A stretch of 64,000 bases of DNA from positions 1 through 64,000 of IMG/VR virus record IMGVR_UViG_3300026097_000805, one strand, 5' to 3'. Of the stretch, positions 2,539 to 39,689 are shown one piece after another. Positions within the stretch are counted from its first letter, which is position 1. Every line of letters begins with the position of its first letter. The position numbers were made by a program, and so were the translations under genes. The DNA is from a virus. The notes beneath the pieces were generated by a model. It made no database searches. It was not told the DNA's origin and was given only the letters and a program-made list of their open reading frames with translations.

Positions 2539-3459
2539 ATGAAAAAATTTAAAGTAATTGACTATGACATCATCTACTTGAGTTATGATGAACCTAATGC
2601 AGAAAAAAATTATGCAGATTTGTGTAGCAAAGTACCATGGGCTAAACGTGTTCATGGTGTAAAAGGATCAGATGCTGCACACAAAGCTTGTGCAGAACTA
2701 AGTGAAACAGATAGATTCATTACTGTCGACGGTGATAATATTGTACACCCTGACTTTTTACAGCAAGAATTAGATTTTGAAGAACACACAGATCTAGAAA
2801 ATTCAGTTATTAGTTGGTGCGGAGTTAATATAATAAACGGGCTCATGTACGGTAATGGTGGGTTAAAGTGTTGGCCGAAAACTCATGTACTTAATATGCG
2901 GACACATGAGAATGCAGATTCTGACAATCCACATGCCCAGGTAGATTTTTGTTGGGATTTAAATTATATACAACAAAACAGCTGGTTTAGTTATGTACAT
3001 AATAATGAAACACCTCAACAAGCGTGGAGAGCAGGTTTTCGCGAAGGTGTAAAAATGGCACTAGATCAGGGTGTAAAACCTACAAAAGAAAATTTTCTTA
3101 ATGGGCATTGGAAAAACTTACATCGTCTTTGGATCTGGTTAATGATAGGCTCTGATGTCAAACACGGCCTTTGGGCAATATACGGTGCAAGACAAGGACT
3201 TTATATGACAATGTGCTCAGATTGGGATTATATAAACGTGCGAGATTTTGATTATCTCAACAACATGTGGAATAATGAAAAACATAAAGAAGATGGACTA
3301 CTAATTCAAATACAAGCACTAGGAAATGATCTCAAGGACGAGCTTGATATACCGATAGATGCTAATCCGTTATTACCCGACCAGAGTAAATTTTTTAAAA
3401 CTGTGTATCAAAATCCCAGTAGAAATCCTAATCAACAATTTATTATAGATCCAGAATGA
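2539..3459 (+). CDS. GT-A-like glycosyltransferase-family protein
   Basis: YDIIYLSYDEPNA...RVHGVKG...AHKACAE...FITVDGD (DxD); AWRAGFREGVK; homologous to the C-terminus of 13648..15273. Confidence 0.6.
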   Translation: MKKFKVIDYDIIYLSYDEPNAEKNYADLCSKVPWAKRVHGVKGSDAAHKACAELSETDRFITVDGDNIVHPDFLQQELDFEEHTDLENSVISWCGVNIINGLMYGNGGLKCWPKTHVLNMRTHENADSDNPHAQVDFCWDLNYIQQNSWFSYVHNNETPQQAWRAGFREGVKMALDQGVKPTKENFLNGHWKNLHRLWIWLMIGSDVKHGLWAIYGARQGLYMTMCSDWDYINVRDFDYLNNMWNNEKHKEDGLLIQIQALGNDLKDELDIPIDANPLLPDQSKFFKTVYQNPSRNPNQQFIIDPE

Positions 3460-4874
3460 CAGATAAACAAAAAGGAGATGAGGTAAAGCTACTAAAGGGA
3501 AAGTACCAATCACAGTATTTTGAGAGTAGTAAAGACCTTTTACAAGGACTTAATAATGTTAGTCCTAGTTTCTGTTTGGCTAAGTGGTACAGTGTAAGTT
3601 TACATTTACCTACTGGCAAGACACACAGTTGCTATCACCCGCCTGCACATAATATTCCACTAGAAGAATTAAATATAACTCCGGATGCATTACATAATAC
3701 ACAGTATAAAAAACAACAACGTGCTAAAATGCTTAAAGGAGAACGACCTAAAGAGTGTGAGTTTTGTTGGGCATTAGAAGATCAAGGAAATATAAGTGAC
3801 CGTGCATATCGTAGTAAAGATGTATTTGAGCCTGGACTAATCGAAGCTGCACAAGTAGAAGAAAATCCTAAACCCAAATACTTAGAAGTAAACTTTAATC
3901 AAGCCTGTAATTTAAAGTGTGCATATTGTAGTCCACATCTGTCAACAGAGTGGCACAAAGAAGTTAAAAAACATGGTGCATACCATTTAGATGGATTTAA
4001 ACACAATGATCCTCTTTGGGTCGACAATTTAGGTATTAATAATGCTCCAGATAGTCCGTATGTGCAAGCGTTTTGGGAATGGTTTCCTACGGTATATCCT
4101 ACATTAAAAACATTTCGTATGACTGGTGGCGAGCCACTTATGGATAAAAACACATTTCGTGTGTTTGACTATATAAAAAATAATCCTAATAATAAATTGA
4201 ATTTGAGTATTACTAGTAATTGTAGTCCTCCTAAAGGTCAGTGGACTAAATTTATGACTAGTCTAAAAGAAATTACAGATAAAGATGCGATAGATCATTT
4301 CATGTTGTTTTGCAGTCTTGACAGTTGGGGGCCCCAGGCAGAATATATAAGACATGGATTAGACTTTGACGAATTATATAAGAATATTACGCAATATTTA
4401 AGTGAAAGCAAAAACCACAGCTTAACTTTTATTATAACGGCAAATCTGCTAAGTTTACCAGGTTGGTTAGATTATGTCAAAAACATTTTAAAATTGCGTA
4501 AAACTTTTAACACTAATCGACAATTGATCTGGTTTGATACACCTATGCTACATGATCCCAAATGGATGAGTATGAAATTAGCGACACCCGAACTGTTGAA
4601 GCCTTTACAAGACAGTATCGATTACATGGAAGAAAATAAAGAAACTATACATAACAGGTTCAAAGGATTTAAGGACTTTGAAGTAGATAAAGTCAGACGA
4701 CTGTATGAGTGGGCGTCAGAACCGTTAAATACCACACAAGAACTAACAGCAAAGAAGAATTTTGATTTGTTTTTTAAACAGCATGATATTCGTAGAGATA
4801 CTGATATACAAAAAACATTTCCTGAACTAATAACTTTCATAGAAGAATGTGAGGTATTATATAATGAGCGATAA
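3456..4874 (+). CDS. radical SAM protein, N-terminal SPASM/Twitch-like domain (class A)
   Basis: CNLKCAYC; TGGEP; N-terminal FCLAKW...HSCYHP...CEFCW. Confidence 0.9.
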   Translation: MTDKQKGDEVKLLKGKYQSQYFESSKDLLQGLNNVSPSFCLAKWYSVSLHLPTGKTHSCYHPPAHNIPLEELNITPDALHNTQYKKQQRAKMLKGERPKECEFCWALEDQGNISDRAYRSKDVFEPGLIEAAQVEENPKPKYLEVNFNQACNLKCAYCSPHLSTEWHKEVKKHGAYHLDGFKHNDPLWVDNLGINNAPDSPYVQAFWEWFPTVYPTLKTFRMTGGEPLMDKNTFRVFDYIKNNPNNKLNLSITSNCSPPKGQWTKFMTSLKEITDKDAIDHFMLFCSLDSWGPQAEYIRHGLDFDELYKNITQYLSESKNHSLTFIITANLLSLPGWLDYVKNILKLRKTFNTNRQLIWFDTPMLHDPKWMSMKLATPELLKPLQDSIDYMEENKETIHNRFKGFKDFEVDKVRRLYEWASEPLNTTQELTAKKNFDLFFKQHDIRRDTDIQKTFPELITFIEECEVLYNER

Positions 4875-6273
4875 TTATATGAATCGTGTTAAAGAAACCC
4901 GAGACTCATTAAATGAAGTAGGTCCAGGGTTCTGTGCAATGAAATGGTTAAACGAAACACTTTACTTGCAAACAGGGGACAACCATAGTTGCTATCATCC
5001 ACGTCCTCATCATATTCCTTTGCAGGAAATAGAAGAAAATCCAAATGCATTGCACAATACTAAATTTAAAAAATCAGTGCGTAAAGAAATGCTCGAAGGT
5101 AAGCGTCCTGAAGAATGTTATTATTGTTGGAATGTAGAAGACTTAGACGGAGAACACTATTCTGATAGAATGTTTCATAGTGCAAGTAATTGGGTTTCAA
5201 AAGAAGATTTAAATCTTATAAAAAGATCTCATTGGAACGATAACATTAATCCAAGATATTTAGAATTAAGTTTTGGCAATGGCTGCAATTTTTCTTGCGG
5301 TTATTGTTGCCCGCAAGCAAGTAGTCTTTGGGTAGATGAAATTAAAAAATACGGAAATTATGATATATCTTATAATCAATATGGTATAGAATTTCTTAAT
5401 GGTAATTTTTATAATGACAAAGAATACAACCCTTACGTAGAAGCCTTTTGGAAATGGTGGCCTGATCTAGTTAAAGATCTTAAAATTTTGAGAATTACCG
5501 GAGGCGAACCTTTGATGAATTCTAATACGTTTAAAATGTTAGACATGCTAGATGAAACTCCTGCTCCGGATTTAGAAATCAATATGAATAGTAATCTAGG
5601 TGTAACTAATGCTCGTGTTAAAAAATTAAGTAATAAAATAAAGAAGTTAATAAAAGAAAATAAAATTAAAACATTTAAACTCTATACAAGCATTGACGGT
5701 TGGGGAGAGCAGGCTGAATATATGCGTAGAGGATTAAAATGCGATTTATGGGAGAAAAATCTTGATACGTTTATTACGATTACTGAGTCGCCTGTAAATA
5801 TTATGATCACATATAACATCTTAGCAGTAGCAAACTTTAGAGATTTACTTGTTAAAATACTAGAACTTAGAGAAAAATATAATTCTAAAGATAATAGTCA
5901 GCAAATGTTAGGATTTGATACACCGTATTTAAAAGAACCACCTCATTGGATGATTAATCTGCTTCCGGTTGACGAGTTTGGACATTACTTAGATAACGAT
6001 TTAAAGTTTATTAAAGAAAACCTAAGAAATAATGGTAATGATACATTTAAATTTAGTAAACACGAATATGAAAAATTTAAGCGTGTACGTGACTATTTTT
6101 ATCAAGGTGGACAAAAAATTACTTCTGAGTTAATTGAGAGAGGCAGAAAGGATTTTTATAAATTTTTTACTGAATATGATAAACGTAGTAATTTAGATTT
6201 CAAAAAAACCTTTCCTTTATATAAGAAGTTTATGAAAGATTGTGAAAGATTAGTAAATGAGTCTAAGAAATAA
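4864..6273 (+). CDS. radical SAM protein (class A), paralog of 3456..4874
   Basis: CNFSCGYC; TGGEP; FCAMKW...HSCYHP...CYYCW; start moved to ATG 4864 (ORF open from 4849). Confidence 0.9.
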   Translation: MSDNYMNRVKETRDSLNEVGPGFCAMKWLNETLYLQTGDNHSCYHPRPHHIPLQEIEENPNALHNTKFKKSVRKEMLEGKRPEECYYCWNVEDLDGEHYSDRMFHSASNWVSKEDLNLIKRSHWNDNINPRYLELSFGNGCNFSCGYCCPQASSLWVDEIKKYGNYDISYNQYGIEFLNGNFYNDKEYNPYVEAFWKWWPDLVKDLKILRITGGEPLMNSNTFKMLDMLDETPAPDLEINMNSNLGVTNARVKKLSNKIKKLIKENKIKTFKLYTSIDGWGEQAEYMRRGLKCDLWEKNLDTFITITESPVNIMITYNILAVANFRDLLVKILELREKYNSKDNSQQMLGFDTPYLKEPPHWMINLLPVDEFGHYLDNDLKFIKENLRNNGNDTFKFSKHEYEKFKRVRDYFYQGGQKITSELIERGRKDFYKFFTEYDKRSNLDFKKTFPLYKKFMKDCERLVNESKK

Positions 6274-7441
6274 TAAAACATTTTGTGTATTACCTTGGAT
6301 TCATTTACATTCGAATCCTGATAGCGAAATTAGACCTTGTTGTATAGCAAAAACTGACCAGTATAAGTTTGGTTATTTAAACAACACCACAGTACAAGAA
6401 GCATGGAATAGTAAATCTTATATGCGTGTTCGCAAGAATATGTTAAAAGGAAAGCCTATTCAAGTTTGTGAAAATTGTTATGAGACTGAAAAATATGGTT
6501 CAAACAGTTTACGCAATAATATGAATGAAAAATGGTTAACTACAGATCTTGAATCTACTATACTAACAAATACAGATTCTAAAGGTAGATATAATAGTCA
6601 AGGTCTTTTATACTGGGACATTAGATACAGTAATGTTTGTAACTTTAAATGTCGAATGTGCGGCCCTGCACTTAGCACAAAATGGTACGAAGATGTAGAA
6701 GGATGGAATCATACATTAACTAATATATCCGATATTAAAAGCTGGTGCGATCAAAATAAAGAATATTTAAAAACTTTAAAAGAAATTTATTTTGCAGGCG
6801 GCGAACCTCTAGTTCAGAAGCAGCATTACGAATTTTTAGAATGGTGTATAAAAAATAACATTTATCCTAGTCTTCATTATCAATCAAATGGAAGTAAGTT
6901 AAAATACGGTAAATGGAATATATTTGAACTTTGGAATCATTTTCCAAATGTTGCTTTTAGTCTTAGTTTAGATGCGTTTGGTGCTCTTGGGGAATATATC
7001 AGAACTGGATATATTGATAATGTTGTTAAAGACAATATGAATAGAATACTAGATTTTATGGGAAGTAATCATAGTATTTTAATAAACAGTACATGGCAGT
7101 TATACAACTCTTATTATATGACTGAGTTTTTTGACGAAGTAGATACTTACAAATGGGTGTTAAATAATAATAATTATACACAATTATTAATTAATCCTGA
7201 ATATCTACAACCTAAAGTTTTACCTGCTGAGCTTAAAAAAACAGCAATAAAAAAAATAGAAACAAGTAAATGGTTTAATATATACCCTAATAAATTTGAG
7301 TCGGTGCTTAATAACCTTAAAGAAGAAAGTTCACAGTTACAATGGAAAAAATTTGTTAAATACTCTAAGAACTTAGATAATATTAGAAAAGAATCATTAG
7401 TTGATGTCTTTCCGGAATTAAGGAAATATTATGAATCTTAG
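6257..7441 (+). CDS. radical SAM protein (class A)
   Basis: CNFKCRMC; AGGEP; FCVLPW...RPCC...CENC. Confidence 0.9.
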   Translation: MSLRNNKTFCVLPWIHLHSNPDSEIRPCCIAKTDQYKFGYLNNTTVQEAWNSKSYMRVRKNMLKGKPIQVCENCYETEKYGSNSLRNNMNEKWLTTDLESTILTNTDSKGRYNSQGLLYWDIRYSNVCNFKCRMCGPALSTKWYEDVEGWNHTLTNISDIKSWCDQNKEYLKTLKEIYFAGGEPLVQKQHYEFLEWCIKNNIYPSLHYQSNGSKLKYGKWNIFELWNHFPNVAFSLSLDAFGALGEYIRTGYIDNVVKDNMNRILDFMGSNHSILINSTWQLYNSYYMTEFFDEVDTYKWVLNNNNYTQLLINPEYLQPKVLPAELKKTAIKKIETSKWFNIYPNKFESVLNNLKEESSQLQWKKFVKYSKNLDNIRKESLVDVFPELRKYYES

Positions 7442-8603
7442 ATGTGTTAATTTAGAATCTGGATTAAGAATTGAAAACGATGGAACATGTAAATCGTGTT
7501 GCATGATGAAAGATAAATTTTGGAAAACCAAAAGAGAAAAATATAATTTGTATTCAGATACATTCGATGATATAATGAAATCTAAAGCAAGACGTAAAAT
7601 AGTAAAGGCATTAGAAAAAGGCGAAAAACACCCTGCGTGTCAGCGTTGCTGGGACGAAGAAGCAACTGGCAAGAAAAGTAAACGTCTAAGAGATAATGAA
7701 ACATTTATAGATACTAAGCCTGGTACTGTACAGATTATTGATGTTAGTATGGGTACACAATGTAACATTAAGTGTAGAACTTGTGGTCCTTTTAACAGCA
7801 GTTTTTGGAATAATGAATGGTTTGATACAGGCTACTTTGGCGGAACTAAAGAAGAGTACAAGTCCTATTTAAAGCGTCTAAATTGTGCTTTTGACGATGA
7901 TAGTAGTTTTTGGGATCAATTTAAACAAAATTTAAAAAATACGTTACACATTGATTTTTATGGAGGCGAGCCTTTTTTAGTCAAAAAGCAATGGAATATG
8001 TTAGAATATGCTATAGAACACGGATATAGTAAAGATATTGCAGTTCATTATAATACAAATGGTACTATATGGAATGACAGTGTATATGATATTCTTAAAG
8101 AATTTAAAGCTGTTTATATAGATTTTAGTATTGACGGAGTATACGATAAATTAACATACATTAGGTATCCTGCAAAATGGGATACAGTTTACAATAATCT
8201 TCTCAAACTAAAGGAAGTATCGGATAAAGATACTAAGTTTAAAATTAATATTTGTAATACAATTAGTATTTTAAATGTCTATTATATTCCAGAAATGTAT
8301 GAAGTATTTGCCGAGTTAGGTAATTCTATGTATTTAAATTTAGTATTCGGTCCTGATTATTACTGTATAAAAAATATACCTAAGCCTATAAAAAAAGAAA
8401 TTACTCAACATTTAGAAAACAGTGAAGAGCGTTATTGGACAACTAGTATTCTTAATTTTATGAATGGTAATAAAGACAATCCTAAAGAATGGGAAAGATT
8501 TTTAAAAATAACTAAAAAACACGACGAGTACAGAGGACAATCATTTAAAGAAATATTTCCTGAATTTTACGATATTATAAAAAAGAACGGATTTAGCCTA
8601 TGA
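7431..8603 (+). CDS. radical SAM protein (class A)
   Basis: CNIKCRTC; YGGEP; N-terminal KSCC...CQRCW. Confidence 0.9.
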   Translation: MNLRCVNLESGLRIENDGTCKSCCMMKDKFWKTKREKYNLYSDTFDDIMKSKARRKIVKALEKGEKHPACQRCWDEEATGKKSKRLRDNETFIDTKPGTVQIIDVSMGTQCNIKCRTCGPFNSSFWNNEWFDTGYFGGTKEEYKSYLKRLNCAFDDDSSFWDQFKQNLKNTLHIDFYGGEPFLVKKQWNMLEYAIEHGYSKDIAVHYNTNGTIWNDSVYDILKEFKAVYIDFSIDGVYDKLTYIRYPAKWDTVYNNLLKLKEVSDKDTKFKINICNTISILNVYYIPEMYEVFAELGNSMYLNLVFGPDYYCIKNIPKPIKKEITQHLENSEERYWTTSILNFMNGNKDNPKEWERFLKITKKHDEYRGQSFKEIFPEFYDIIKKNGFSL

Positions 8604-9820
8604 AGAATTTTACCTGGAAAGAATCTAAAGTAACACATATGCACATAGAGTTATCTAATTTTTGTAATGCAGCATGTCCGTTTTGTCCTAGGTATGTAGA
8701 TAGCACTGCAAGAGTTAGACCAGAGTTACAATTGAATTCTATAACACTAGAACAATTTAAAAAATGGTTTCCTTTAAATTTTATGAAAAGTGTAGAGCGT
8801 ATTTTATTTTGTGGAACACACGGCGATCCACTGATGGCAAAGGATGTTATAGAAATTATAGATTATATACAAACGTCATCACCAAAGTGTACCATACAAG
8901 TGAACACTAATGGAGGCATGCGATCTCCTGAATTTTTTAGAGCATTAGGAAAAAAATTAGTTGAGCATGGAACTAATCATAAAGTAGTTTTTAGTATAGA
9001 CGGGTTAAAAGATACAAATCATTTATACAGAAGAAATGTAAAGTGGGAAAAACTTATAGAAAACGCAATAGCTTTTAACAGTACCGGTGCTCGGGGTCTG
9101 TGGGAATATCTTATTTTTGAACACAACGAGCATCAATTAGAAGAAGCCAAACAATTATCAGAAGAATTAGGGTTTTATGATATAAAATTTAAAAAAGCAT
9201 TAGGTTTTGATCCTAATAAGTCAGGGCAATTAAAAGCTAGAGGAGTGTATGATAAAAATGGCGATCTAGAGTACATCATAAGTCCGCCTAGTGACCAGTC
9301 AATGATAAACTCGTCGTGTGTGCCAAACAGTGTAGATAAAAATGTTAAGACCTCAAAAGACATAACATACTTAAAAGACTTTAAACCCGGAGTAAATCCT
9401 ATTGTCGAAAGCAAAGTAGCTAATTTTGACGAGGCAAAAATACCACATTGGAACACTTATATTAAACAGTTTGAAAACAGTGCTATAAATTGTAAAAGCT
9501 GTGTTAAGTCAAAATCGTCAGAAATTTATGTAAGCTGTGACGGTATTGTATTTCCTTGTTGTTTTATAGGAACACGAGTTGATAGTGCAATAGATTTGTA
9601 CGAAGATACACAATTAAGACATCATATAAAACAGTTTGGTAAAGATAAATTTGATTTAAAAAAGACTTCTATTAAAAAAATTATAAAACGGGGCTATTTA
9701 GACAGTGTGTATACGGACAGTTGGGATAAAGAGTCATATACTAACGGTAAACTTTCTTATTGTGCAATGACCTGTGGAAATAATAGTGAGATAGATAGGA
9801 TTTACGATAGAGATGATTGA
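8600..9820 (+). CDS. radical SAM protein, C-terminal SPASM/Twitch (class B)
   Basis: HIELSNFCNAACPFC; CGTHGDP; FSIDGLKDTNHLYRR; C-terminal FPCC...CAMTCG. Confidence 0.9.
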   Translation: MKNFTWKESKVTHMHIELSNFCNAACPFCPRYVDSTARVRPELQLNSITLEQFKKWFPLNFMKSVERILFCGTHGDPLMAKDVIEIIDYIQTSSPKCTIQVNTNGGMRSPEFFRALGKKLVEHGTNHKVVFSIDGLKDTNHLYRRNVKWEKLIENAIAFNSTGARGLWEYLIFEHNEHQLEEAKQLSEELGFYDIKFKKALGFDPNKSGQLKARGVYDKNGDLEYIISPPSDQSMINSSCVPNSVDKNVKTSKDITYLKDFKPGVNPIVESKVANFDEAKIPHWNTYIKQFENSAINCKSCVKSKSSEIYVSCDGIVFPCCFIGTRVDSAIDLYEDTQLRHHIKQFGKDKFDLKKTSIKKIIKRGYLDSVYTDSWDKESYTNGKLSYCAMTCGNNSEIDRIYDRDD

Positions 9821-10598
9821 TTATAAAAAATATGATAGACTAGTGTCTTATGGTTGTAGTTGGACAGCAGGAGATGAAATAAGAGATCATATAATATTAG
9901 ACTTACCGTATCAAAAGTGTAGAAAGCTAAAACTTGATTTAGGTTTTACAAATTTTGGAAATTTAAAGACAAAAGCAGGAGATAGATACAGCACTTTACT
10001 AGATAAAAATAAGCATATTAATAGTAACGCATCTTGGACTTCATATTTGGCTAAAAATTTAGATCTTAAGTTTAAAAATAGAGCTCAAGGCGGTAGCAGT
10101 ATGGATCAGATTTTATATAACATTGTGAAAGATACTGGAAATGGACTATTAAGTAGTAAAGATTTAATAATAGTAGGAATTACTACTCCAGCTAGATCAT
10201 TTATGTGGAAAGACGGAGAATCTCCTAGTAGCTATGTATTAGGAACAACAACGCAAATTCCTGCAAAAGTCAAGGACTGGTGTTTGACAAATATTTGGTC
10301 AGACAGCCAGCTTATTTACAATTGGCTAAAAACAATTAACACTATAGCTATGATGCAAGAAAATGTATACTTTCTTTTTATTCGTCCTATATGCAATCCT
10401 GTAGAATCTGAAAACTATAAAGTAAGTCACGAAAATAAATTCTTTTATGACCAAACAATGCAAAAATTAGGACACAAATTTTTAGACCTTAAATTACACT
10501 TAGAATTAGGAGACGAACATTGCGGTTTTGGACATCCTCAAGAAAAAGAACATATTAAGTTAGCAAATAAACTTACTAATTTAATTAAAGGAAATTAG
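9813..10598 (+). CDS. SGNH-hydrolase-like protein
   Basis: GCSWTAG (block I Ser); NRAQGGSS; C-terminal GHP. Confidence 0.5.
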   Translation: MIDYKKYDRLVSYGCSWTAGDEIRDHIILDLPYQKCRKLKLDLGFTNFGNLKTKAGDRYSTLLDKNKHINSNASWTSYLAKNLDLKFKNRAQGGSSMDQILYNIVKDTGNGLLSSKDLIIVGITTPARSFMWKDGESPSSYVLGTTTQIPAKVKDWCLTNIWSDSQLIYNWLKTINTIAMMQENVYFLFIRPICNPVESENYKVSHENKFFYDQTMQKLGHKFLDLKLHLELGDEHCGFGHPQEKEHIKLANKLTNLIKGN

Positions 10599-10599
10599 G

Positions 10600-11775: not shown

Positions 11776-11893
11776 AACAAATTGTTAATTAGTCTGATAC
11801 TAAATGTATCTAATCTACAAAATTTTGTCTATACGGAGTATCAACTAACTCAATAGGAATAGTCAAAATGTTTGTGTCTATGTATGCGTACAT

Positions 11894-11901: not shown

Positions 11902-11937
11902 CCTTGTAGTTATTTATAGGAATTAAACATTTAAATT

Positions 11938-12405
11938 ATGAAATTAGATTATCAAAAACTTGGTATTGTTGTCATGGATGTAGGCCTACCTCAAAATTCT
12001 TATAGATATAACGAAGAAAAATCCACAAATGATGCGTTTGTGTCTTATTTAAATCAACGATTACACGATCTTAAAAAACAAGGTGCTAAAATTATAGAAA
12101 TCAACTATATTTCTCTAGATAGTACACATCCATTGATAGACACAGAGTTTGATCTAAGGACTCTTAATTTGAAGGAACTTGAGGAGTACATAAAAAGAAG
12201 CGGAATTAAACATTTGATTTATACAGGGTTCCATTATCCTATCTGTACAAATGGTGAAAGAGAATTAAGTAGTTATAATTTAGAATCAAACAAAAATCTA
12301 GAGCAAGTTTCTATTGCTGTTCAGTTAACAAGATCTATAAGTAGAGACTACACTGTTCCTTTAGTAGATACGTATAAGTACGGAGTATGGCAGGTGATGT
12401 TATGA
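11938..12405 (+). CDS. hypothetical protein, weak isochorismatase/cysteine-hydrolase-like
   Basis: IVVMDV near the N-terminus; GIKHLIYTGFHYPIC. Confidence 0.4.
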   Translation: MKLDYQKLGIVVMDVGLPQNSYRYNEEKSTNDAFVSYLNQRLHDLKKQGAKIIEINYISLDSTHPLIDTEFDLRTLNLKELEEYIKRSGIKHLIYTGFHYPICTNGERELSSYNLESNKNLEQVSIAVQLTRSISRDYTVPLVDTYKYGVWQVML

Positions 12406-19565: not shown

Positions 19566-19566
19566 C

Positions 19567-32253: not shown

Positions 32254-33453
32254 TTGAAACCTGTAGCAAGTTATTTTAAGCACAATCCAACCGGGGCATT
32301 TAGTGTTGATTGGTACATAGGGAAACGCTGTAATTTCAGTTGTTCTTACTGTGTTGACTATCTGCATGACAATCATTCCCCTCATGTTCCCTATGAAAAC
32401 ATGCGGGCCCTTGCTGACACTATCATAGACGCCCACGGCATAAATGTTTTTTGGAGCCTCACGGGCGGTGAACCCACTATCAATCCAGATTTCATGAAAC
32501 TGTGTAAGTATATCAAACATGAGCGGGGCGCAAAACATGTTAGTCTAACCACCAACGGCAGCAGAACAGCAGCCTATCTCAAAGAGCTATATCAGTATTT
32601 AGACGGTATAACACTTAGCTTTCACTTTGAACACATGAAACATCGTATTGATGAATTCATAGACAAATGTATTCAACTAGAAGATTGGCGCAGGCAGTGG
32701 AATGCGGAGCAGGAAGCAAGCAACAACAAGTTTCCAGACTGGGACACAGGTTATATCAAAAAAACACTGATACTTAGATTCATGGTTTATCCAGGACAGT
32801 TTGAAAATGTTGAACGCATGGAACAGGCATTTCGCGATCACGGCATCACTAACATAGAACACCGTTATATTCGTCCGCCAGGCGGCAACTCTAACGAATT
32901 ATTGCCTGATAAGAAACTAGATTTTAAAACCAACAATGATACAGAATCAAAATACAAACTGTTGAGCAATGCTGACCAGACAGATATCAAAGCTATCGAA
33001 ACCAGAGAGAAAAAGTTTTATCGAGAAGGTGAACAAGAAAAAATCAAACAATTGTACGAAAACAAGATAACTCCAGACAAACGCAAATTAAAGTTTTGGT
33101 TCGACAACGACGGTGATCTAGTTGATCAAGATTTTCATTACAATGAACTAAATTTTGACAAGAAAAACAACTATGAAGGTTGGTTATGCTGGGCTGGGGT
33201 AAAACATTTGAAAGTGACACCCACAGGAGATATCTATATAGGAAGTTGTCATGTGGGAGGCAAGCGTGGTAATATATATGATAGCGGCAGCATTGATTTG
33301 CCAACTGAACCGATTCGTTGCCCTAAATGGCGCTGTACTGATAACCTAGATCTCAAAGTACCAAAGATTCGAGATTGGGAATATTACCATCTAGTTAAAG
33401 ACATGATAGAGTGGAAAGATTCTACGGATTCAATAGATATTGACAAACTATAA
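32254..33453 (+). CDS. radical SAM protein (class C)
   Basis: VDWYIGKRCNFSCSYC; TGGEP; C-terminal CWAG...GSC...CPKWRC; TTG start. Confidence 0.88.
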   Translation: MKPVASYFKHNPTGAFSVDWYIGKRCNFSCSYCVDYLHDNHSPHVPYENMRALADTIIDAHGINVFWSLTGGEPTINPDFMKLCKYIKHERGAKHVSLTTNGSRTAAYLKELYQYLDGITLSFHFEHMKHRIDEFIDKCIQLEDWRRQWNAEQEASNNKFPDWDTGYIKKTLILRFMVYPGQFENVERMEQAFRDHGITNIEHRYIRPPGGNSNELLPDKKLDFKTNNDTESKYKLLSNADQTDIKAIETREKKFYREGEQEKIKQLYENKITPDKRKLKFWFDNDGDLVDQDFHYNELNFDKKNNYEGWLCWAGVKHLKVTPTGDIYIGSCHVGGKRGNIYDSGSIDLPTEPIRCPKWRCTDNLDLKVPKIRDWEYYHLVKDMIEWKDSTDSIDIDKL

Positions 33454-33474: not shown

Positions 33475-34590
33475 ATGAATGAAAATTTAAAATGGTCCAA
33501 CTATGACTTCACTAAAATACCACTTGATGACATTGTCAGTGTTGGTCAACGCACTTTGCTTTATCGTGATCTTTTTACTGTATCGTGGTTGCTTGGAAGA
33601 TTCTGTAATTACAGATGCTCCTACTGTTGGCCATATGCCCGTTCCGACCGTAAAGACCATAGACCTACCGAGCTCTGCTTGCGCACAGTGGATGAAATTA
33701 AACGTCAAGCCAGACTCAACGGCTTCAATTCTTTCCACTTCTCCCTGTCAGGAGGAGAACCTACTTTCCATCCTGGCTACTTCGACATTTTAAAACATCT
33801 AGCTCAAGATATCGAAAACACAAACTACACCAGTATTCACATGACTTCTAACTGTAGTCGTAAAATGAAATGGTTTGAAGAGTATGTAGAGATAGCAAAG
33901 TCCTTTCACAGAGCTAGTATTACAGCAAGTCTACATACCGAACATGTAGACAACAAAGAAAAAATGCAGGAGTTTGCGGATAAACTTATTCTCTGTCAGG
34001 AAAATGATGTACAAATTACTATTAACATGGTCATGGTCCCAGAATGGTTTGATCGAGATTGGGAAAACGCTCTTTTCTTCCACGAGCAAGGAATAAACGT
34101 CACCCTTAAACCACAGAGCGATCCTACAGCGTCCAGAGTCGTAGAGGGCTACACAGAAGAACAGCTACAAACACTCTACAACGGAATGCCACAGCGAGGA
34201 TATACTGACGTAAAACGCAAGTGGGCAAATAGACCCAAACCAAACTTTCAAATACCCAAAGGAATAATGGGAAAAAATGATGCTAGTGTTCCGTGGAACA
34301 TGCAGGTTGAGCTTGAAGACTCTCAAGGAGAAAAATGGTATATGGATCAAGCAGAACGATTCAATGCCTTTAATTTTAACAAGTTTACTGACTGGAGTTG
34401 TAATGCTGGATATCAAGGCATAATTATAAGAGAGCCTGACGGAAATATCAAAAGGTCCTATAGCTGTCACGACGAACCCTTGGGTCATATTGAGACTGGA
34501 TTTACTTTGTTTAAAGAACCCAAGAAATGTATAACACCTAGTTGTGTAAGCAGTGCCGATAGCAAAATACCAAAGAGAAAATATGGGTAA
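33475..34590 (+). CDS. radical SAM protein (class C)
   Basis: VSWLLGRFCNYRCSYC; SGGEP; C-terminal CNAG...SC...CITPSC. Confidence 0.9.
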   Translation: MNENLKWSNYDFTKIPLDDIVSVGQRTLLYRDLFTVSWLLGRFCNYRCSYCWPYARSDRKDHRPTELCLRTVDEIKRQARLNGFNSFHFSLSGGEPTFHPGYFDILKHLAQDIENTNYTSIHMTSNCSRKMKWFEEYVEIAKSFHRASITASLHTEHVDNKEKMQEFADKLILCQENDVQITINMVMVPEWFDRDWENALFFHEQGINVTLKPQSDPTASRVVEGYTEEQLQTLYNGMPQRGYTDVKRKWANRPKPNFQIPKGIMGKNDASVPWNMQVELEDSQGEKWYMDQAERFNAFNFNKFTDWSCNAGYQGIIIREPDGNIKRSYSCHDEPLGHIETGFTLFKEPKKCITPSCVSSADSKIPKRKYG

Positions 34591-35776
34591 AGCAAAAATA
34601 ACCAGCAAAAATAAAGATACTATTTGTACATTTCCGTGGGAGATGTATAGCATAGACACGGGCTTTGGGTGGTATCGTTCCTGTCCTAGAATACCCTATC
34701 AAAAACTAGAAGACTTGGACTTTCACAATCATGGTAAAATTGTTGATTTAAGACAAGGGTTGCGAGACGGTGTAAAACACGACCTTTGTAAAGATTGCTG
34801 GTATGCCGAAGACAACGGCGCAAAGAGCTACAAACAAGTTTTAAAAACTAATTACGCCTACAAAAACAGCGATCAAGATTATGTCGCACATCCTAGAATA
34901 TTAGAAGTAAAGTTTAGCAATCTTTGTAATTTAAGATGTATTTTTTGTAGCAGTAAATGTAGCAGTCTATGGGAAGATGAACAGCCTATTACCGAGGATA
35001 TGTTAGGTTCTAAAAAAGGTGCTGAAGTTAATACAGCCCTATTAAAGTACATTAACGAAAACTATAAAAATCTTGAGATGTTTCAGTTGTTTGGCGGCGA
35101 ACCAGTACTACACAAAGAGTTCAACGATATATTTGACATTATTCTTAAAAAGCCAGAAAGTGACGGGCAAAAAGAAATTAGTTTCAGTACCAATCTATAT
35201 TACAACGACACATACAGGAAAAAATTCGAAGATAACATAAAAGGTTGCCTAGATAAAGGTCATAAGATCTATATGCGAATGAGCATAGACGGTGTATACA
35301 ATCAAGGAAAATATCTAAGACAAGGAATTGACTGGAGCGTATTTGAAAAGAATCTAGACAGTTTCATGGACAAGTTCCACGACTGGCCCAACTTTGGTAG
35401 GCTTAGATGTAATATTGCTTTAAATGCCACAAACATAATGTACTTAGATACAATCATGCACTATCTCAATGATAGAGGTTTAGATAATGTAGAACCGCAT
35501 TATAATTATGTTAGTAATCCTAAATACTTTTATGTTCAAACATATGGCACTCGTTTACAACAAGCTATAGATATTATCAAATCCCAAGACTATAGAATCT
35601 ATGACAAATATAAAACTCATGTATTGGATCTACTAGGTAGCATGGTTCATTTAGAACCACAGACTGATGTAATTGAGCAAGGAAAAGACTGGCTAAATAC
35701 ATATGATATTAAAACCAATCAGAACTTTTTAGAAGTTTTTCCACTTAATAGGTATATGTTTGATGATAGATTGTAG
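34583..35776 (+). CDS. radical SAM protein (class A)
   Basis: CNLRCIFC; FGGEP; CTFPW...RSCP...CKDCW; start moved to ATG 34583. Confidence 0.88.
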   Translation: MGKAKITSKNKDTICTFPWEMYSIDTGFGWYRSCPRIPYQKLEDLDFHNHGKIVDLRQGLRDGVKHDLCKDCWYAEDNGAKSYKQVLKTNYAYKNSDQDYVAHPRILEVKFSNLCNLRCIFCSSKCSSLWEDEQPITEDMLGSKKGAEVNTALLKYINENYKNLEMFQLFGGEPVLHKEFNDIFDIILKKPESDGQKEISFSTNLYYNDTYRKKFEDNIKGCLDKGHKIYMRMSIDGVYNQGKYLRQGIDWSVFEKNLDSFMDKFHDWPNFGRLRCNIALNATNIMYLDTIMHYLNDRGLDNVEPHYNYVSNPKYFYVQTYGTRLQQAIDIIKSQDYRIYDKYKTHVLDLLGSMVHLEPQTDVIEQGKDWLNTYDIKTNQNFLEVFPLNRYMFDDRL

Positions 35777-37205
35777 TCTAGTAGCAATTCCTCCCCTTGT
35801 TCTAAATGGACCTCCTATTGGAATTGCCTTACTCAAAGCACTTGCTGAAGAAAATGGCTATAAGTGCCAATGCTTTAATCCGAGTATTGACGTCTGGGAA
35901 AAACTAGAAAAGAATGAGAAAAGAACTTGGCCATATACACGCTTTACAAAAGAGTTTGAAGAAAAATACGATGTAGATGCTTGGGTAGCAGAGATAGTTG
36001 ATAACGCTTTGGCTCCTAATCCAAAATTCATAGGACTGTCATCGCATACCTGGAGCAGTGAATATTTTTTATTGAAAATTTCAAAACGATTCAAAGAAGT
36101 TCGTCCTGACCTAAAACTAGTATTAGGCGGTGCCGCAGCCATGGAACTTTTTGATACTGTGAGAAAACACAATGATATAGATTATATTGTGGTAGGCGAT
36201 GGCGAAAAAGCATTTTTAAATTGTTTGGAAGGCAAATTTGATTTTGAAGGACTTAACACAAAGGTTTCTCATTCTCTAAGTCCGGAAGAATTTAATAATT
36301 TACCATATCCAGATTTTAGTGATTTAAGGGTAGATTGGCACAAAGCAAAAAACCCTAAAGAAAACAGAATATATCTCATAGGCAGCAGAGGTTGTGTGTA
36401 TAACTGTAGTTTTTGTAATGTGCCTACAATGATGAAATATCGTTTCAAAGACGGAGCAAAATTTGCTCATGAAATACGCCACATGCAGAATCTATACACG
36501 CCTACCAATATTGAATTTGGCGACAGCTTAATTAATGGAAGTCTTAGAGAATATAAAAAACTTATATATACGCTAGCAGAATTAAACAAACAAGATCCTG
36601 TTAACAAACCAAAGATAGTCAGTTTCTATAGAATTAGACCAGAAGCACAAAGTCCTGAAGAAGACTTCAAAGCCGCAGCTGAAGCAGGATTTTACAGATT
36701 TAAAATAGGTGTGGAAAGCGGAAGCGATCAAGTTAGAAGTCACATAGGTAAACAAGAAACCAACGAGGACATAGAATACACCCTTAGAATGATGAAGAAG
36801 TATGGCATCAACGCTAACTTATTAATTATTGTTGGATACCCTACCGAAACAGAAAAAGATTTCCAAGAAACACTCGACATGCTTCAGATGATGGTGGATA
36901 CAGGGTTAGACAGTGTTGTTGACAGAGCAGTTGTAAACGAACTATATATCAGCACTGGTACACGCATAAGTGAGCAGATAGATGAGTTGGGCATTAGAGA
37001 TGCCTATGGCAGCGCAGAAGAAAAAATGAGTAGACCGTGGAGTGTGACTCTGCCTAACGGTGAAATCATTGACGAGGAAGTGCGAGAACGCAGACTACAC
37101 ACTGTGCTAGACTTTATTGAAAACAAGTTTCAAAATGCGCAAAACCTCATGGTTTTTAGCGGCAAGGAGGACAGCAGCCGCAACAGGGAAGGTGACAAGA
37201 CCTAA
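35760..37205 (+). CDS. cobalamin-binding-domain radical SAM protein (class B methyltransferase-like)
   Basis: PPIGIALL; FIGLS; VLGG; VVGDGE; GSRGCVYNCSFC; IGVESGS; VGYPTET. Confidence 0.85.
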   Translation: MMIDCSLVAIPPLVLNGPPIGIALLKALAEENGYKCQCFNPSIDVWEKLEKNEKRTWPYTRFTKEFEEKYDVDAWVAEIVDNALAPNPKFIGLSSHTWSSEYFLLKISKRFKEVRPDLKLVLGGAAAMELFDTVRKHNDIDYIVVGDGEKAFLNCLEGKFDFEGLNTKVSHSLSPEEFNNLPYPDFSDLRVDWHKAKNPKENRIYLIGSRGCVYNCSFCNVPTMMKYRFKDGAKFAHEIRHMQNLYTPTNIEFGDSLINGSLREYKKLIYTLAELNKQDPVNKPKIVSFYRIRPEAQSPEEDFKAAAEAGFYRFKIGVESGSDQVRSHIGKQETNEDIEYTLRMMKKYGINANLLIIVGYPTETEKDFQETLDMLQMMVDTGLDSVVDRAVVNELYISTGTRISEQIDELGIRDAYGSAEEKMSRPWSVTLPNGEIIDEEVRERRLHTVLDFIENKFQNAQNLMVFSGKEDSSRNREGDKT

Positions 37206-38107
37206 TGTGGCCTTACAGCGCAGATCAAGTTGAAAAACTACATCTTGAAACTGGCACCTTTTGTAATCTAGAGTGTCCAGGTTGTCTTCGCACATTTGAT
37301 AACACCGCACAATCGCACCTAAATACTAATTTTCTTACATACAAAAAAGTATCCACATGGTTTCAACCCAATGTATTACCGTCAGTAAACAAAGTAATAT
37401 ATAGCGGGCAGATTGATGAGCCTGCTGCTAATCCAGAAATAAAAGAAATCACAGAATATTTTCTTGACAATTGGAGCCTTAAAGTTCTAATCATGCAGAG
37501 TCACGGAAGCATACGAACCGAAAACTTTTGGACCGAACTAGGCAATCTTAGTAGAGAGTCAGGTCATATTTTTAGAGTAGAATTTAGCATAGACGGATTG
37601 GAAGACTCAAATCATATCTACAGACAAGGCAGTAATTGGCACAGAATTATAAACAATGTTAACGCATACATACAAGCAGGCGGCTATGCCAGCTGGAAGT
37701 TTATTAAATTCAAACACAATGAACATCAAGTGGATCAAGCACTAGAACTTAGTAAGAAGCTAGGCTTTAAACAGTTTGTGACCGTTGACAGTGCTAGGCC
37801 TTCTAGCAAGGAAATAAATACACCTTTTGATTTTAAATCCAACGACAGTGTTAAATGTAGAGCATTTGACGACAAATGGTTGTATGTTCACTATGATGGT
37901 GTTTTACAGCCTTGTTGCTACTTTGGATATGACGAACGCAGTGACGATCCAGAAGATAATTTAAACCACAACACCATAGATAATTATTTTAGTAATAGTA
38001 AATTTTTACATGATCTACAAGATGGTTGGGATACTCCTAGCTGTAATCCAAGATGCTATACCAAATGTAAATTAAATTTACGAGATAACAGGACGGTATA
38101 CGAATGA
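37205..38107 (+). CDS. radical SAM protein (class B)
   Basis: CNLECPGC; FSIDGLEDSNHIYR; QPCCY...CYTKC. Confidence 0.88.
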   Translation: MWPYSADQVEKLHLETGTFCNLECPGCLRTFDNTAQSHLNTNFLTYKKVSTWFQPNVLPSVNKVIYSGQIDEPAANPEIKEITEYFLDNWSLKVLIMQSHGSIRTENFWTELGNLSRESGHIFRVEFSIDGLEDSNHIYRQGSNWHRIINNVNAYIQAGGYASWKFIKFKHNEHQVDQALELSKKLGFKQFVTVDSARPSSKEINTPFDFKSNDSVKCRAFDDKWLYVHYDGVLQPCCYFGYDERSDDPEDNLNHNTIDNYFSNSKFLHDLQDGWDTPSCNPRCYTKCKLNLRDNRTVYE

Positions 38108-38649
38108 TAGAAATCTATGACAACTTTTTGGATGAAAAAGTCTTTAAACAAGTTCAACAAGAAGTTCTTGGTTTGAGCTATGAGCCTATACAACACGGCG
38201 ACGATGTAGCATATAAACTAGACAGCGGTACAATTTATAAAACCAAACACAAACAGTGGTCAGATAACCCAACAGCACTACAGGTGTTTTTTGATGCTAT
38301 GGCACAACAAGATTTTCTTCCATCTGATGTATTTTCTATTATGGTTCATGTTTACGAACCAGGAGCAGAAATCAGTTGGCACAGAGATTATGCCTCACTT
38401 GCTTCATATTCTTTTTATATACACGACGAATGGCGCAGTGAGTGGGGAGGACAGTTAATGGTCACAGATTCTTCAGACCGCCACGGAAATAACGGCAATG
38501 TTTTTGACCACAGGCAAGATGTTATGACACCCGGTGTAGGACAATACTATGAACCTATTCCTAATAGACTTGTGATTATAAAAGACTGTCTACACAAAGT
38601 AAACCGTTGTAATCACAGACGCACTAGCCTTACAGGATTTTTCAAATAA
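38104..38649 (+). CDS. prolyl-4-hydroxylase-like 2OG-Fe(II) oxygenase
   Basis: YEPGAEISWHRD; WRSEWGGQL; LHKV...RTSLTGF. Confidence 0.8.
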   Translation: MIEIYDNFLDEKVFKQVQQEVLGLSYEPIQHGDDVAYKLDSGTIYKTKHKQWSDNPTALQVFFDAMAQQDFLPSDVFSIMVHVYEPGAEISWHRDYASLASYSFYIHDEWRSEWGGQLMVTDSSDRHGNNGNVFDHRQDVMTPGVGQYYEPIPNRLVIIKDCLHKVNRCNHRRTSLTGFFK

Positions 38650-39689
38650 TGGCTTACTGCATGGCACCTTTCAGAAATGTCTACATCAACAACGGCAAAG
38701 CACGGCCCTGCTGTTGGTATGAACGCAGAGAACTCACTAACAAAGTAGACAATCTTATTGAAGTTGTTGATGTATTCAACAGCAATGAATTTGATGCGAT
38801 AAGAAACAACCCCAGCAATAAACCCAGCGGATGTTGGAAGTGTCAGATGCATGAAGACAATGGCGGCGTTAGTCATAGGATGCTATGGAATAAGCGCGAA
38901 AAGGATAACGGAGATGTCAAGCTGACTGATTTAGATATCTACATGGGCAATCTTTGTAATCTTGCTTGTGTGACCTGTAGCAGTCACAACAGTTCTAAAT
39001 GGATCGCTGAAGAAAAACAAATTTATGGATCCAGCTTCAAAGACAAGCAAGACGACATAGACATCAATCTCAACTGGGAGTTGGTAAAGGATTTAAAACG
39101 AATCAAACTAGCTGGAGGGGAAGTCACACTCATGCCCCATCACGAACCATTTTTACAACAGTTGATTGACTTTGATGTGGCAAAAAATATCACCCTAGTT
39201 TATATTGTCAACAGCACACAAGATCCTAGAAAGTTTGAAAATTTGTGGAGCAAATTTAAAAACATAGAATTTATAGTAAGCCTAGACGGTGTTGGCGAGC
39301 TCAGTGACTATATTAGATATCACAGTGATTGGAATACCGTAAGCACAAATATTATTCGCGCCACAGAAATGGGCATTCAAATCAGTGCCAACAGTGTGGT
39401 TAACATTTTGAATGTATACCATTTGCCCGAAATACTGGAGTGGTGGAAACACAAAGGCAGTGTGCTATGGCGCATTTTAGATTATCCGCAACCATTGAGC
39501 ATTGTCAATCTCAAGCCCGAACACAAGGATCTTGTGGCAGAGAGATTGAAAGACTATGATGAGCTTGCGCATGTGATAGAACACATGTACAAAGAACAAG
39601 GCGACTGGAATAGCTTTGTAGATTGGATCACTCCTATAGATAACAACAGAAAGTATAACTGGCAACAGTTTAATCCACAATATGTCTGA
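38649..39689 (+). CDS. radical SAM protein (class A)
   Basis: CNLACVTC; AGGEV; YCMAPF...RPCC...CWKC. Confidence 0.9.
   Translation: MAYCMAPFRNVYINNGKARPCCWYERRELTNKVDNLIEVVDVFNSNEFDAIRNNPSNKPSGCWKCQMHEDNGGVSHRMLWNKREKDNGDVKLTDLDIYMGNLCNLACVTCSSHNSSKWIAEEKQIYGSSFKDKQDDIDINLNWELVKDLKRIKLAGGEVTLMPHHEPFLQQLIDFDVAKNITLVYIVNSTQDPRKFENLWSKFKNIEFIVSLDGVGELSDYIRYHSDWNTVSTNIIRATEMGIQISANSVVNILNVYHLPEILEWWKHKGSVLWRILDYPQPLSIVNLKPEHKDLVAERLKDYDELAHVIEHMYKEQGDWNSFVDWITPIDNNRKYNWQQFNPQYV

Follow-up and report, generated by a model that had tools for sequence, protein, structure and literature searches.

Gene clusters with radical S-adenosylmethionine (SAM) enzymes, whose chemistry is among the hardest in biology, are known to hold one or a few of them. 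The island described here, from the virus record IMGVR_UViG_3300026097_000805 of IMG/VR, has 22 in a single virus, arrayed among conserved genes that resemble those of nucleotide-sugar transferases. The window analyzed is the initial 64 kb of the record's 179,647 bp, and genes are named below by their lower window coordinate (Table 1). Thirteen of the 22 proteins match the full NCBIfam model NF033640 (N_Twi_rSAM) and share with it four N-terminal Cys residues, CX3CX2C, and GGE. Metagenomes contain thousands of members of this family (over 6000 matches at E 1e-5 or better), with no characterized representative and no assigned substrate; the bacterial loci examined contain one to six copies, compared to 13 deeply diverged paralogs in this one phage.

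The same gene order is found in a cultured phage, Ralstonia phage RsoM2USA (MG752970), where ORF353 to ORF347 (open reading frames, ORFs) lie downstream of virion genes and are 31–48% identical to their counterparts here. RsoM2USA has just one radical SAM gene within this frame, against 22 here; all of these genes carry the annotation hypothetical and go without discussion in the paper describing the phage (PMC8504454). In an uncultured marine T4-like viral genome of ~183 kb, 12 radical SAM genes occur together with an A-type Fe-S carrier (Nishimura et al., 2017; PMC5332604), but the 12 are counted only as Fe-S proteins, with nothing on architecture, island structure, or function. That genome and the present contig thus both combine many radical SAM genes with an A-type carrier, here at contig positions 105650–105952 (minus strand), outside the window (PF01521, 55 bits), which might supply the 22 iron-sulfur enzymes. 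Searches of the available half-genome for flavodoxin and SAM synthetase genes found none. Literature searches on the function of N-terminal SPASM/twitch domains, or on phage systems combining radical SAM enzymes and glycosyltransferases, found nothing relevant. An earlier note on this sequence knew of no characterized equivalent; none turned up in the searchable literature either, but the N_Twi family is already catalogued as NF033640 and the 12-gene marine genome has been mentioned. New here are the conserved frame, the minimal RsoM2USA module beside virion genes confirmed by mass spectrometry, a census of fusions, an all-soluble proteome, a negative survey of bacterial neighborhoods, and a recombination scar. 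The finding can be tested in culture, since RsoM2USA (like Vibrio phages K566/K567) has a minimal version, a single N_Twi gene between two transferase-like genes. Separately, three neighboring genes of Vibrio phage K566 (L149, 161.5–166 kb of a 255-kb genome) are annotated as radical SAM genes, one of them 24% identical to 6257–7441, and this phage is a possible second laboratory model.

Among characterized enzymes, BtrN and its relatives are radical SAM enzymes with a twitch/SPASM domain and modify sugars during natural-product biosynthesis. BlsE (PDB 7vob), a structural match of the N_Twi model, has the same radical SAM core and a Cys-ligated auxiliary cluster. The pathways of BlsE and BtrN keep similar gene company (an aminotransferase, a dehydrogenase, transferases, and a B12 radical SAM enzyme), but they make free bacterial metabolites with one to a few radical SAM enzymes, their auxiliary domain is C-terminal rather than N-terminal, and the sequence likeness is at the superfamily level only. 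Foldseek ranks the maturases SkfB, CteB, ChlB, SuiB, and anSME highest for the N_Twi model. Unlike these, N_Twi proteins have no RRE, no leader-peptide gene, and no C-terminal SPASM domain, and NCBIfam maturase models score far under their cut-offs. For the transferases, matches found with VIA-align (Z ~9 to 13648) include virus-encoded GT-A-type enzymes, A64R of PBCV-1 (PDB 2p73) and the chlorovirus hyaluronan synthase. We know of no radical SAM enzymes in chlorovirus glycosylation systems, and unlike the chlorovirus enzymes the transferases here form a new family without a Pfam model.

The record is a linear contig with no terminal repeat and a G+C content of 38.6%. CheckV rates it 50% complete, for a whole genome of ~360 kb; contigs of 355 and 360 kb encode homologs of its proteins, and a related contig of 275 kb (G1) is rated 77% complete. 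The source is therefore an uncultured jumbo phage, with half of its genome on the contig. Two further contigs used for comparison are another relative (G2) and a more distant phage (L054); the nearest isolates, RsoM2USA (344 kb) and Vibrio phages K566/K567 (255 kb), are distant. Orthologs of 21734, a core N_Twi gene, occur at 64–86% identity on 53 IMG/VR contigs, each with 2–13 CxxxCxxC ORFs within the stretch of up to 21 kb fetched per contig, and five larger relatives have 11–20 PF04055 matches apiece, grouped in one region. The corresponding position in relatives holds 14–20 radical SAM genes. Misassembly, which the earlier note had raised, was rejected: the island borders and internal core are colinear with the independently assembled G1 and G2 and with RsoM2USA. 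The G+C content of the island is 28–37% over most of its length, climbing gradually rightward, compared to 38–43% in the remaining contig (a difference of 5–10%). Its limits, first given as 3456–39689, were revised to a start at or before position 7 and an end at 42685 (~40 kb).

Radical SAM families and their arrangement

Within 3456–39689 there are exactly 22 ORFs with a CxxxCxxC motif, once per ORF, as the earlier note had counted; the other 140 kb of the contig have only one, an unrelated ORF of 139 aa. All 22 match the radical SAM profile PF04055, and 17 reach its gathering score (29.5 bits). Four of the remaining five (3456, 21734, 23128, and 38649) score 253–419 bits with NF033640, well over its cut-off of 170. 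The fifth, 37205, is below threshold in every profile yet clearly related to its paralog 27625 (E 9e-40). An all-against-all BLAST reproduced the four architectures of the earlier note as groups of 13, six, two, and one, with the membership given in Table 1.

The 13 N_Twi proteins pass NF033640 with 212–419 bits, over model positions ~1–397 of 398, while the remaining nine score 20–62 bits. Pairwise they are just 17–28% identical, with two exceptions (15948/17297 at 52% and 3456/4849 at 36%), and the residues invariant in all of them are limited to four N-terminal Cys (C10, C28, C71, and C74 in 6257), CX3CX2C, GGE, and few others. Pfam SPASM matches the N-terminal 60–95 residues in most, and the N-terminal Cys are predicted to be ligands of an auxiliary cluster. 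The six members of family B have instead a Cys-rich, SPASM-like C-terminal tail with 5–8 Cys in the pattern C-X18-CC ... C-X3/7-C-X3-C, although only 20136 passes the cut-off of Pfam SPASM (PF13186, 27.4 bits) and 30012 is a weak match. The two proteins of the third type, 32254 and 33475, have a C-terminal four-Cys region unlike that of family B. The last, 35760, is a class B enzyme with a B12-binding domain at residues 71–154 (PF02310, 45.3 bits, cut-off 32.1) and a radical SAM domain at residues 208–375 (PF04055, 72.1 bits); its closest NCBIfam families are C- and P-methyltransferases, with every equivalog model under its cut-off.

The earlier note had allowed that most copies might lack catalytic residues. 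CX3CX2C and a PF04055 match are present in all 22, the auxiliary Cys and GGE in all 13 N_Twi proteins, and ratios of nonsynonymous to synonymous substitution rates (dN/dS) for core genes are 0.06–0.12 relative to G1, so that the enzymes appear to be intact and constrained. These ratios are like those of flank genes and point to purifying selection on the core genes; dS is saturated and the values are rough.

Genes are tightly packed. Overlapping or abutting neighbors account for 36 of 41 same-strand junctions, in 11 cases as ATGA overlaps, in keeping with the earlier description of nearly all as translationally coupled. The start of the single minus-strand radical SAM gene was corrected; it is probably the ATG at 32214, not 32538, so there is no overlap with the next gene. 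Five gaps of 19–162 nt contain promoter-like AT-rich sequence or the scar described below, and no precursor ORF. The T4 late-promoter consensus TATAAATA is found at 11894, 21722, and 32220 (minus strand), just 5' of the genes starting at 11938, 21734, and 32214 (minus strand). Fifteen copies occur on the whole contig, four of them within 60 nt of a gene start compared to 0.5 expected, too few to call late promoters, and a scan for sigma-70 promoters gave 52 sites where 54 are expected by chance. In systems for ribosomally synthesized and post-translationally modified peptides, radical SAM genes come with an adjacent precursor-peptide gene and a leader-binding RRE; both are absent from the island, where no ORF has a Pfam match to RRE or PqqD domains. 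As far as this can be tested, the earlier suggestion that the substrate is not a small precursor peptide is supported, there being no space for a precursor gene.

The transferase-like frame and its variable contents

The frame consists, in order, of two GT8-like genes, a small divergent protein, a GT-A-like protein, an N_Twi radical SAM enzyme, a multi-domain GT-A-like protein, and a methyltransferase-like protein. The same order is seen in RsoM2USA and, with hidden Markov models (HMMs) built in this analysis, in G1, G2, and L054; it is common to at least four phage lineages. The RsoM2USA genes from ORF353 to ORF347 match 309, 1135, (1962), 2539, 3456/4849, the C-terminal domain of 13648, and 15260, in that order. 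The single radical SAM gene of the RsoM2USA frame (a second is elsewhere in its genome) contrasts with the 22 of the present phage, and L054 has ~7 genes of radical SAM size between its two GT-A-like genes; the frame can thus hold from one to many. Among 50,697 phage records, no isolate other than RsoM2USA has these subfamilies.

The GT8 assignment of 309 and 1135 comes from a family profile, which matches residues 3–117 of glycogenin-1 (E 4e-7) as far as the DxD motif, with D107 and D109 invariant; the single sequences have no Pfam match. Glycosyltransferase activity is predicted for both. An AlphaFold model of 13648 (predicted local distance difference test score, pLDDT, 92.9) has four tandem GT-A-like domains. 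Foldseek matches it to chondroitin polymerase (K4CP), RmlT, ppGalNAc-transferases, ArnC, and SunS, at E ~1e-5 and probabilities of 0.97–1.0 to GT2/GT27 enzymes. VIA-align gives Z scores of 9–11 over residues 317–541, with the longest alignments (191–217 residues) to hyaluronan and cellulose synthases and with the PBCV-1 capsid glycosyltransferase among the matches; IspD-type nucleotidyltransferases score equally. A DGD motif at 375–377 is near-invariant in 121 sequences. The model has a GT-A fold, which is also assigned to 2539 as a paralog of the C-terminal domain of 13648; both proteins may transfer sugars. The GT-A-like family of these two proteins is essentially phage-only. The 13648 protein itself has no Pfam or PHROG match. 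Its last domain has more than 3200 metagenomic homologs (57–86% identical, 300–950 aa) with no Pfam family, and these differ chiefly in the number of N-terminal GT-A-like repeats.

The contents of the frame vary far more than its surroundings. A comparison of island content across related phages, proposed in the earlier note, found most flank genes (44–58 kb) 50–91% identical to those of G1, but only about nine of 43 island genes at 48% identity or more (309, 1135, 2539, 12387, 13648, 15260, 18492, 21734, and 33475). Other island radical SAM genes have only paralog-level matches in G1 (25–43%), and, of the genes within 10 kb of 21734, four (15948, 17297, 24453, and 25018) have no ortholog in any of the 53 relatives. 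In a FastTree reconstruction of 179 N_Twi sequences the 13 from the window do not form one clade but are scattered among sequences of bacteria and other phages; the starred branches require at least 12 changes of label, and the details are unsafe because of long branches. The N_Twi paralogs are ancient, by their low identity, and polyphyletic on this tree.

One exchange appears to have left a scar, in the 119-nt gap after gene 15948. Positions 17177–17254 (78 nt) are 95% identical to 18820–18897, inside the radical SAM gene 18492, and 17249–17313 (65 nt) are 88% identical to the gene junction at 15900–15964. The flanking genes 15948 and 17297 have bodies 52–75% identical (dS 1.8) and ends 82–88% identical. 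Young junctions around old gene bodies would be expected from insertion by recombination of a cassette that had already diverged. With the divergence of the paralogs, their interleaving in the tree, and the mosaic content relative to relatives, this supports the earlier description of the system as expanded and diversifying.

Many contigs of jumbo-phage size, several over 270 kb, encode two complete N_Twi modules in one polypeptide of 790–995 aa (proteins P0251–P0280), and most N_Twi-containing proteins longer than 690 residues are tandem double fusions of this kind. By analogy, this suggests that neighboring N_Twi paralogs, which occur in runs here, may work in pairs.

Possible products and their destination

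In the preferred reading, whose probability we put at about even, the island encodes a cytoplasmic system that builds a glycan, edits its sugars by radical chemistry, and decorates fiber or other virion proteins with it. Each radical SAM enzyme would reductively cleave SAM at the [4Fe-4S] cluster of CX3CX2C, and the 5'-deoxyadenosyl radical would take a hydrogen from a sugar carbon, whether in a nucleoside diphosphate (NDP)-sugar or in one that has already been attached. In the twitch domain, an auxiliary cluster ligated entirely by Cys would accept or return the electron, different paralogs would carry out oxidation, epimerization, deoxygenation, or C-C chemistry, and the B12 enzyme (35760) would C-methylate. 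Soluble transferases would load the product onto a soluble acceptor, the likeliest being the flanking tail-fiber or giant fiber proteins, and swaps of radical SAM cassettes between co-infecting phages would make the decoration vary from phage to phage. More tentatively, and with considerable doubt, the N_Twi enzymes could be a large glycan-editing class that acts on sugars during or after attachment to fiber proteins and is shuffled as cassettes by jumbo phages, each of which would have its own radically tailored glycan; surface diversity would then be combinatorial and produced through oxygen-sensitive chemistry in phages of oxic waters. If sugar editing is confirmed, the island would represent a set of new carbohydrate reactions, and abundant aquatic jumbo phages would have a virion- or infection-related glycan layer varied by cassette exchange.

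The earlier note had proposed a virion protein or glycan as substrate. The glycan part is supported by the transferase frame, by the NDP-sugar 6-dehydrogenase inside the island (12387, 80% conserved in G1), and by fusions elsewhere of N_Twi modules to a phosphomannomutase (P0285), a TylF-like O-methyltransferase (P0266), an EryCIII-like glycosyltransferase (P0284), and a carbamoyltransferase (P0287), the last of which has a second example in a Bacteriovoracaceae genome (L097). In L054 the array adjoins genes for a DegT aminotransferase, an NDP-sugar epimerase/dehydratase, and a GFO_IDH oxidoreductase. The aminotransferase-like, GNAT, and weakly SDR-like genes of the island and its three 2OG oxygenases are further pointers to sugars. 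The virion part is a matter of context, with fiber genes on both sides. The right border is a hypervariable gene for a tail-fiber-like protein with an Mtd_N domain, only 26% identical to its G1 counterpart, and left of the island G1 encodes a 2750-aa protein, a Tail-Collar protein, and a fiber protein with a Peptidase_G2 (IMC) chaperone domain. The RsoM2USA frame lies directly downstream of ORF361 (>288 kDa), ORF359 (tail sheath), and ORF356, all identified as virion proteins by liquid chromatography-tandem mass spectrometry (PMC8504454). No collagen-like repeats were found in the giant proteins.

The acceptor is likely to be soluble. No 19-residue segment with a Kyte-Doolittle hydrophobicity of 1.6 or more was found in 43 of 44 island proteins, and 35760 has one borderline N-terminal segment. 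Without a convincing membrane segment in the 44 proteins, it is unlikely that the phage has its own lipid-linked envelope pathway; the scan likewise revealed no membrane-embedded priming transferase, flippase, or polymerase of the Wzx/Wzy or ABC type.

Several observations weigh against sugar editing on the virion. Nucleotidyltransferases have a GT-A fold as well (IspD tops the VIA-align list), so sugar transfer by 13648 and 2539 does not necessarily follow. The radical SAM families of the island have no known substrate, a virion target is read from gene position, and half of the genome is absent from the contig. The 112 operon neighbors of N_Twi genes in bacteria are heterogeneous with no dominant family, proteins with tetratricopeptide repeats (TPR) being commonest, and no glycosyltransferase family is among the 25 commonest neighbor families; bacterial gene context alone gives no support to a sugar substrate. 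TPR repeats are also the most frequent N_Twi fusion partners in bacteria, which would fit protein targets, and long arrays of TPR or Sel1 repeats are joined to the N_Twi module in Elusimicrobia and other bacteria. The solved structures nearest to the model of 6257 (pLDDT 95.7) are mostly the peptide and protein maturases named above (E 2e-7 to 2e-5, probability 1.0), with TM-scores of only ~0.4 and with viperin, BlsE, and MoaA close behind.

These structural matches and TPR/Sel1 associations would be expected if the radical SAM enzymes modified amino-acid residues of phage structural proteins (by cross-links, epimerization, or anSME-like oxidation) and the transferases were merely an adjacent function. 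Also consistent with this are a bacterial N_Twi copy adjoining a type IX-secreted protein with immunoglobulin-like domains and the 2-oxoglutarate (2OG) oxygenases of the island, from the protein-hydroxylase families PF05118 and PF13640. We nevertheless consider protein modification rather unlikely, given the missing RRE/PqqD domain and precursor gene, the GT-A-like genes on both sides of an N_Twi gene in all phages examined, and the fusions to phosphomannomutase, sugar O-methyltransferase, GT1 glycosyltransferase, and carbamoyltransferases, which point to sugars. One Elusimicrobia metagenome-assembled genome (L121 254–16052, L142, L119) has six consecutive N_Twi radical SAM genes, at least four of them behind 400–800 residues of TPR, a different design from the phage island.

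A free small molecule, such as an aminoglycoside- or nucleoside-like glycoside that is released at lysis or acts within the cell against competitors or host defenses, is improbable as the product. Clusters for aminoglycoside and nucleoside antibiotics are known for the radical SAM enzymes BtrN, GenK, and BlsE, and the mix of genes here (twitch/SPASM and B12 radical SAM enzymes, an NDP-sugar dehydrogenase, aminotransferase-like, GNAT, short-chain dehydrogenase/reductase (SDR)-like, and 2OG proteins, and transferases) recalls them; the structural match to BlsE and the solubility of all the enzymes would also fit. Against this, no scaffold-forming enzyme (cyclitol synthase, nonribosomal peptide synthetase, or polyketide synthase) or exporter was found in the island, its frame is fixed beside tail and fiber genes in four lineages, and its GT8-like enzymes resemble the protein-priming glycogenin.

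We assign a similarly small probability to modified nucleotide sugars feeding host envelope pathways and remodeling lipopolysaccharide or capsule, for example against superinfection or re-adsorption of progeny. The NDP-sugar dehydrogenase would fit, as would GT8 and PF05118, the families of lipopolysaccharide-core transferases and the lipid-A hydroxylase LpxO, respectively, and a few bacterial N_Twi neighbors are envelope enzymes (PMT_2, UbiA, GDSL, and DegT). Against this are the missing membrane protein, priming transferase, flippase, and polymerase, the phage-only distribution of the GT-A-like family, and the location of the island in the tail-fiber region rather than among early genes.

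Hypermodification of phage DNA against restriction, by base glycosylation and tailoring, is highly improbable: known thymidine-hypermodification clusters do contain radical SAM, pyridoxal phosphate, kinase-like, and acetyltransferase genes, and the L054 array is near thymidylate-synthase-like and dihydrofolate reductase genes, but at Pfam sensitivity no island ORF matches aGPT-pyrophosphorylase, 5-hydroxymethyldeoxyuridine kinase, DNA glycosylase-like, or DNA-binding families, characterized DNA glucosyltransferases are to our knowledge neither GT-A nor GT8, and the island is among fiber genes, apart from the opposite-strand replication and modification block.

Gene map and accessory genes

Table 1. 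Genes and other features of the island, in window coordinates.
Feature	Position	Strand	Evidence
Small ORF, 101 aa	7..312	+	50% identical to G1 15829-16179; contig truncated at left edge
GT8-like glycosyltransferase (predicted), frame gene 1	309..1148	+	Profile to glycogenin-1 E 4e-7; 37% to RsoM2USA ORF353
GT8-like glycosyltransferase (predicted), frame gene 2	1135..1965	+	Paralog of 309-1148
Fast-evolving 191-aa protein, function unknown, frame gene 3	1962..2537	+	No Pfam/PHROG match
GT-A-like transferase (putative), frame gene 4	2539..3459	+	HMM of 13648 C-terminal domain E 7e-43
N_Twi radical SAM, frame-type	3456..4874	+	NF033640 312 bits; 36% to RsoM2USA ORF349
N_Twi radical SAM	4849..6273	+	NF033640 305 bits; 36% to paralog 3456
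N_Twi radical SAM, structure modeled	6257..7441	+	NF033640 347 bits; AF2 pLDDT 95.7
N_Twi radical SAM	7431..8603	+	NF033640 309 bits
Family-B radical SAM, C-terminal SPASM-like Cys tail	8600..9820	+	PF04055 46 bits
261-aa protein, function unknown	9813..10598	+	SGNH-like N-terminal motif by eye only; no Pfam/PHROG/PDB match
391-aa protein, phage-only family, invariant E-K-T motif	10600..11775	+	Three G1 paralogs; no Pfam/PHROG/PDB match
155-aa protein, function unknown	11938..12405	+	TATAAATA 44 nt upstream
Nucleotide-sugar 6-dehydrogenase	12387..13628	+	PF03721 + PF00984 over cut-off; TIGR03026 E 2e-45; 80% in G1
Four tandem GT-A-like domains, frame gene	13648..15273	+	AF2 pLDDT 92.9; last domain with near-invariant DGD
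Methyltransferase-like protein, frame gene	15260..15961	+	31% to RsoM2USA ORF347; ortholog in 45/53 relatives
N_Twi radical SAM	15948..17177	+	NF033640 228 bits; 52% to paralog 17297
Recombination scar, non-coding	17177..17313		78-nt copy from gene 18492 + 65-nt copy of 15900-15964 junction
N_Twi radical SAM	17297..18499	+	NF033640 264 bits
Family-B radical SAM, core gene	18492..19565	+	Ortholog at ≥50% identity in 51/53 relatives; dN/dS 0.07
210-aa protein, partner of 18492	19507..20139	+	HxD...H by eye; 45% to 21137-21706; no Pfam match
Family-B radical SAM with Pfam SPASM match	20136..21137	+	PF04055 43 bits, PF13186 27 bits
Paralog of 19507-20139	21137..21706	+	45% identity
N_Twi radical SAM, core gene	21734..23131	+	NF033640 419 bits; dN/dS 0.06
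N_Twi radical SAM	23128..24456	+	NF033640 268 bits
Rossmann/SDR-like protein (weak)	24453..25028	+	NCBIfam SDR E 0.0025, first 38 residues only
N_Twi radical SAM	25018..26265	+	NF033640 296 bits
N_Twi radical SAM	26262..27638	+	NF033640 366 bits
Family-B radical SAM	27625..28728	+	PF04055 31 bits
Short SDR-like protein (weak)	28725..29288	+	PF00106 E 9e-4; phrog_3142
Asp/Arg beta-hydroxylase-type 2OG oxygenase	29261..30022	+	PF05118 27.7 bits, cut-off 22.6
Family-B radical SAM	30012..31124	+	PF04055 30 bits
N_Twi radical SAM, sole minus-strand gene	31093..32214	-	NF033640 324 bits over 31102-32205; revised start ATG 32214
Third-type radical SAM, C-terminal 4-Cys region	32254..33453	+	PF04055 54.5 bits
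Third-type radical SAM, best conserved island gene	33475..34590	+	PF04055 58.7 bits; 82-84% in G1, G2; dN/dS 0.06
N_Twi radical SAM	34553..35776	+	NF033640 212 bits
B12-binding class-B radical SAM, methyltransferase-like	35760..37205	+	PF02310 45 bits, PF04055 72 bits
Family-B radical SAM, shortest, lowest Pfam score	37205..38107	+	PF04055 20.4 bits; 38% to 27625
Prolyl-hydroxylase-type 2OG-Fe(II) oxygenase	38104..38649	+	PF13640 42 bits
N_Twi radical SAM	38649..39689	+	NF033640 253 bits
Two proteins (220, 175 aa), function unknown	39682..40861	+	No Pfam/PHROG match
Aminotransferase class I/II-like, partial match	40858..41697	+	PF00155 25.6 bits
GNAT acetyltransferase	41682..42125	+	PF13508 + PF00583
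Asp/Arg beta-hydroxylase-type 2OG oxygenase, last plus-strand gene	42044..42685	+	PF05118 38.7 bits
Tail-fiber-like protein, Mtd N-terminal domain, right boundary	42682..44163	-	PF18454 44.7 bits; 26% to G1 counterpart

At the left edge, the G1 ORF corresponding to 7–312 comes after tail-fiber genes. The third frame gene, 1962, has a weak colinear match (E 4e-5) to its positional counterpart ORF351 of RsoM2USA, and 2539 is 48% identical to ORF350 and 69–79% identical to its counterparts in relatives. Of the enzymes that the earlier note described as interleaved with the radical SAM genes, the NDP-sugar dehydrogenase (12387) and the 2OG oxygenases (29261, 38104, and 42044) were upheld, and the glycosyltransferases correspond to the GT8-like 309 and 1135 and the GT-A folds of 13648 and 2539. 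Matches of 24453 and 28725 to SDR proteins are weak, and the methyltransferase reading of 15260 is a language-model lead alone (Methyltransf_31, at 0.95), with no Pfam or PDB match. Sequence searches of the PDB gave no match for 33475, 18492, 9813, 21137, or the families of 10600 and 15260, and PHROGs were uninformative for 20 accessory ORFs of the island. Readings as SGNH, kinase-like, 2OG-like (19507, 21137, and 39682), or "TEK" transferase proteins come from motifs spotted by eye.

A small gene that does not encode a radical SAM enzyme follows nearly every family-B gene (8600–10598, 18492–21706, 27625–29288, and 37205–38649). The pairs 18492 + 19507 and 20136 + 21137 look like a duplicated two-gene unit, since 19507 and 21137 are paralogs. 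Beyond the right border, 45697–48208 (minus strand) encodes a MoxR-type AAA ATPase and a DUF2201 metallopeptidase with a VWA-like domain, a pair that is 74–86% identical in G1.

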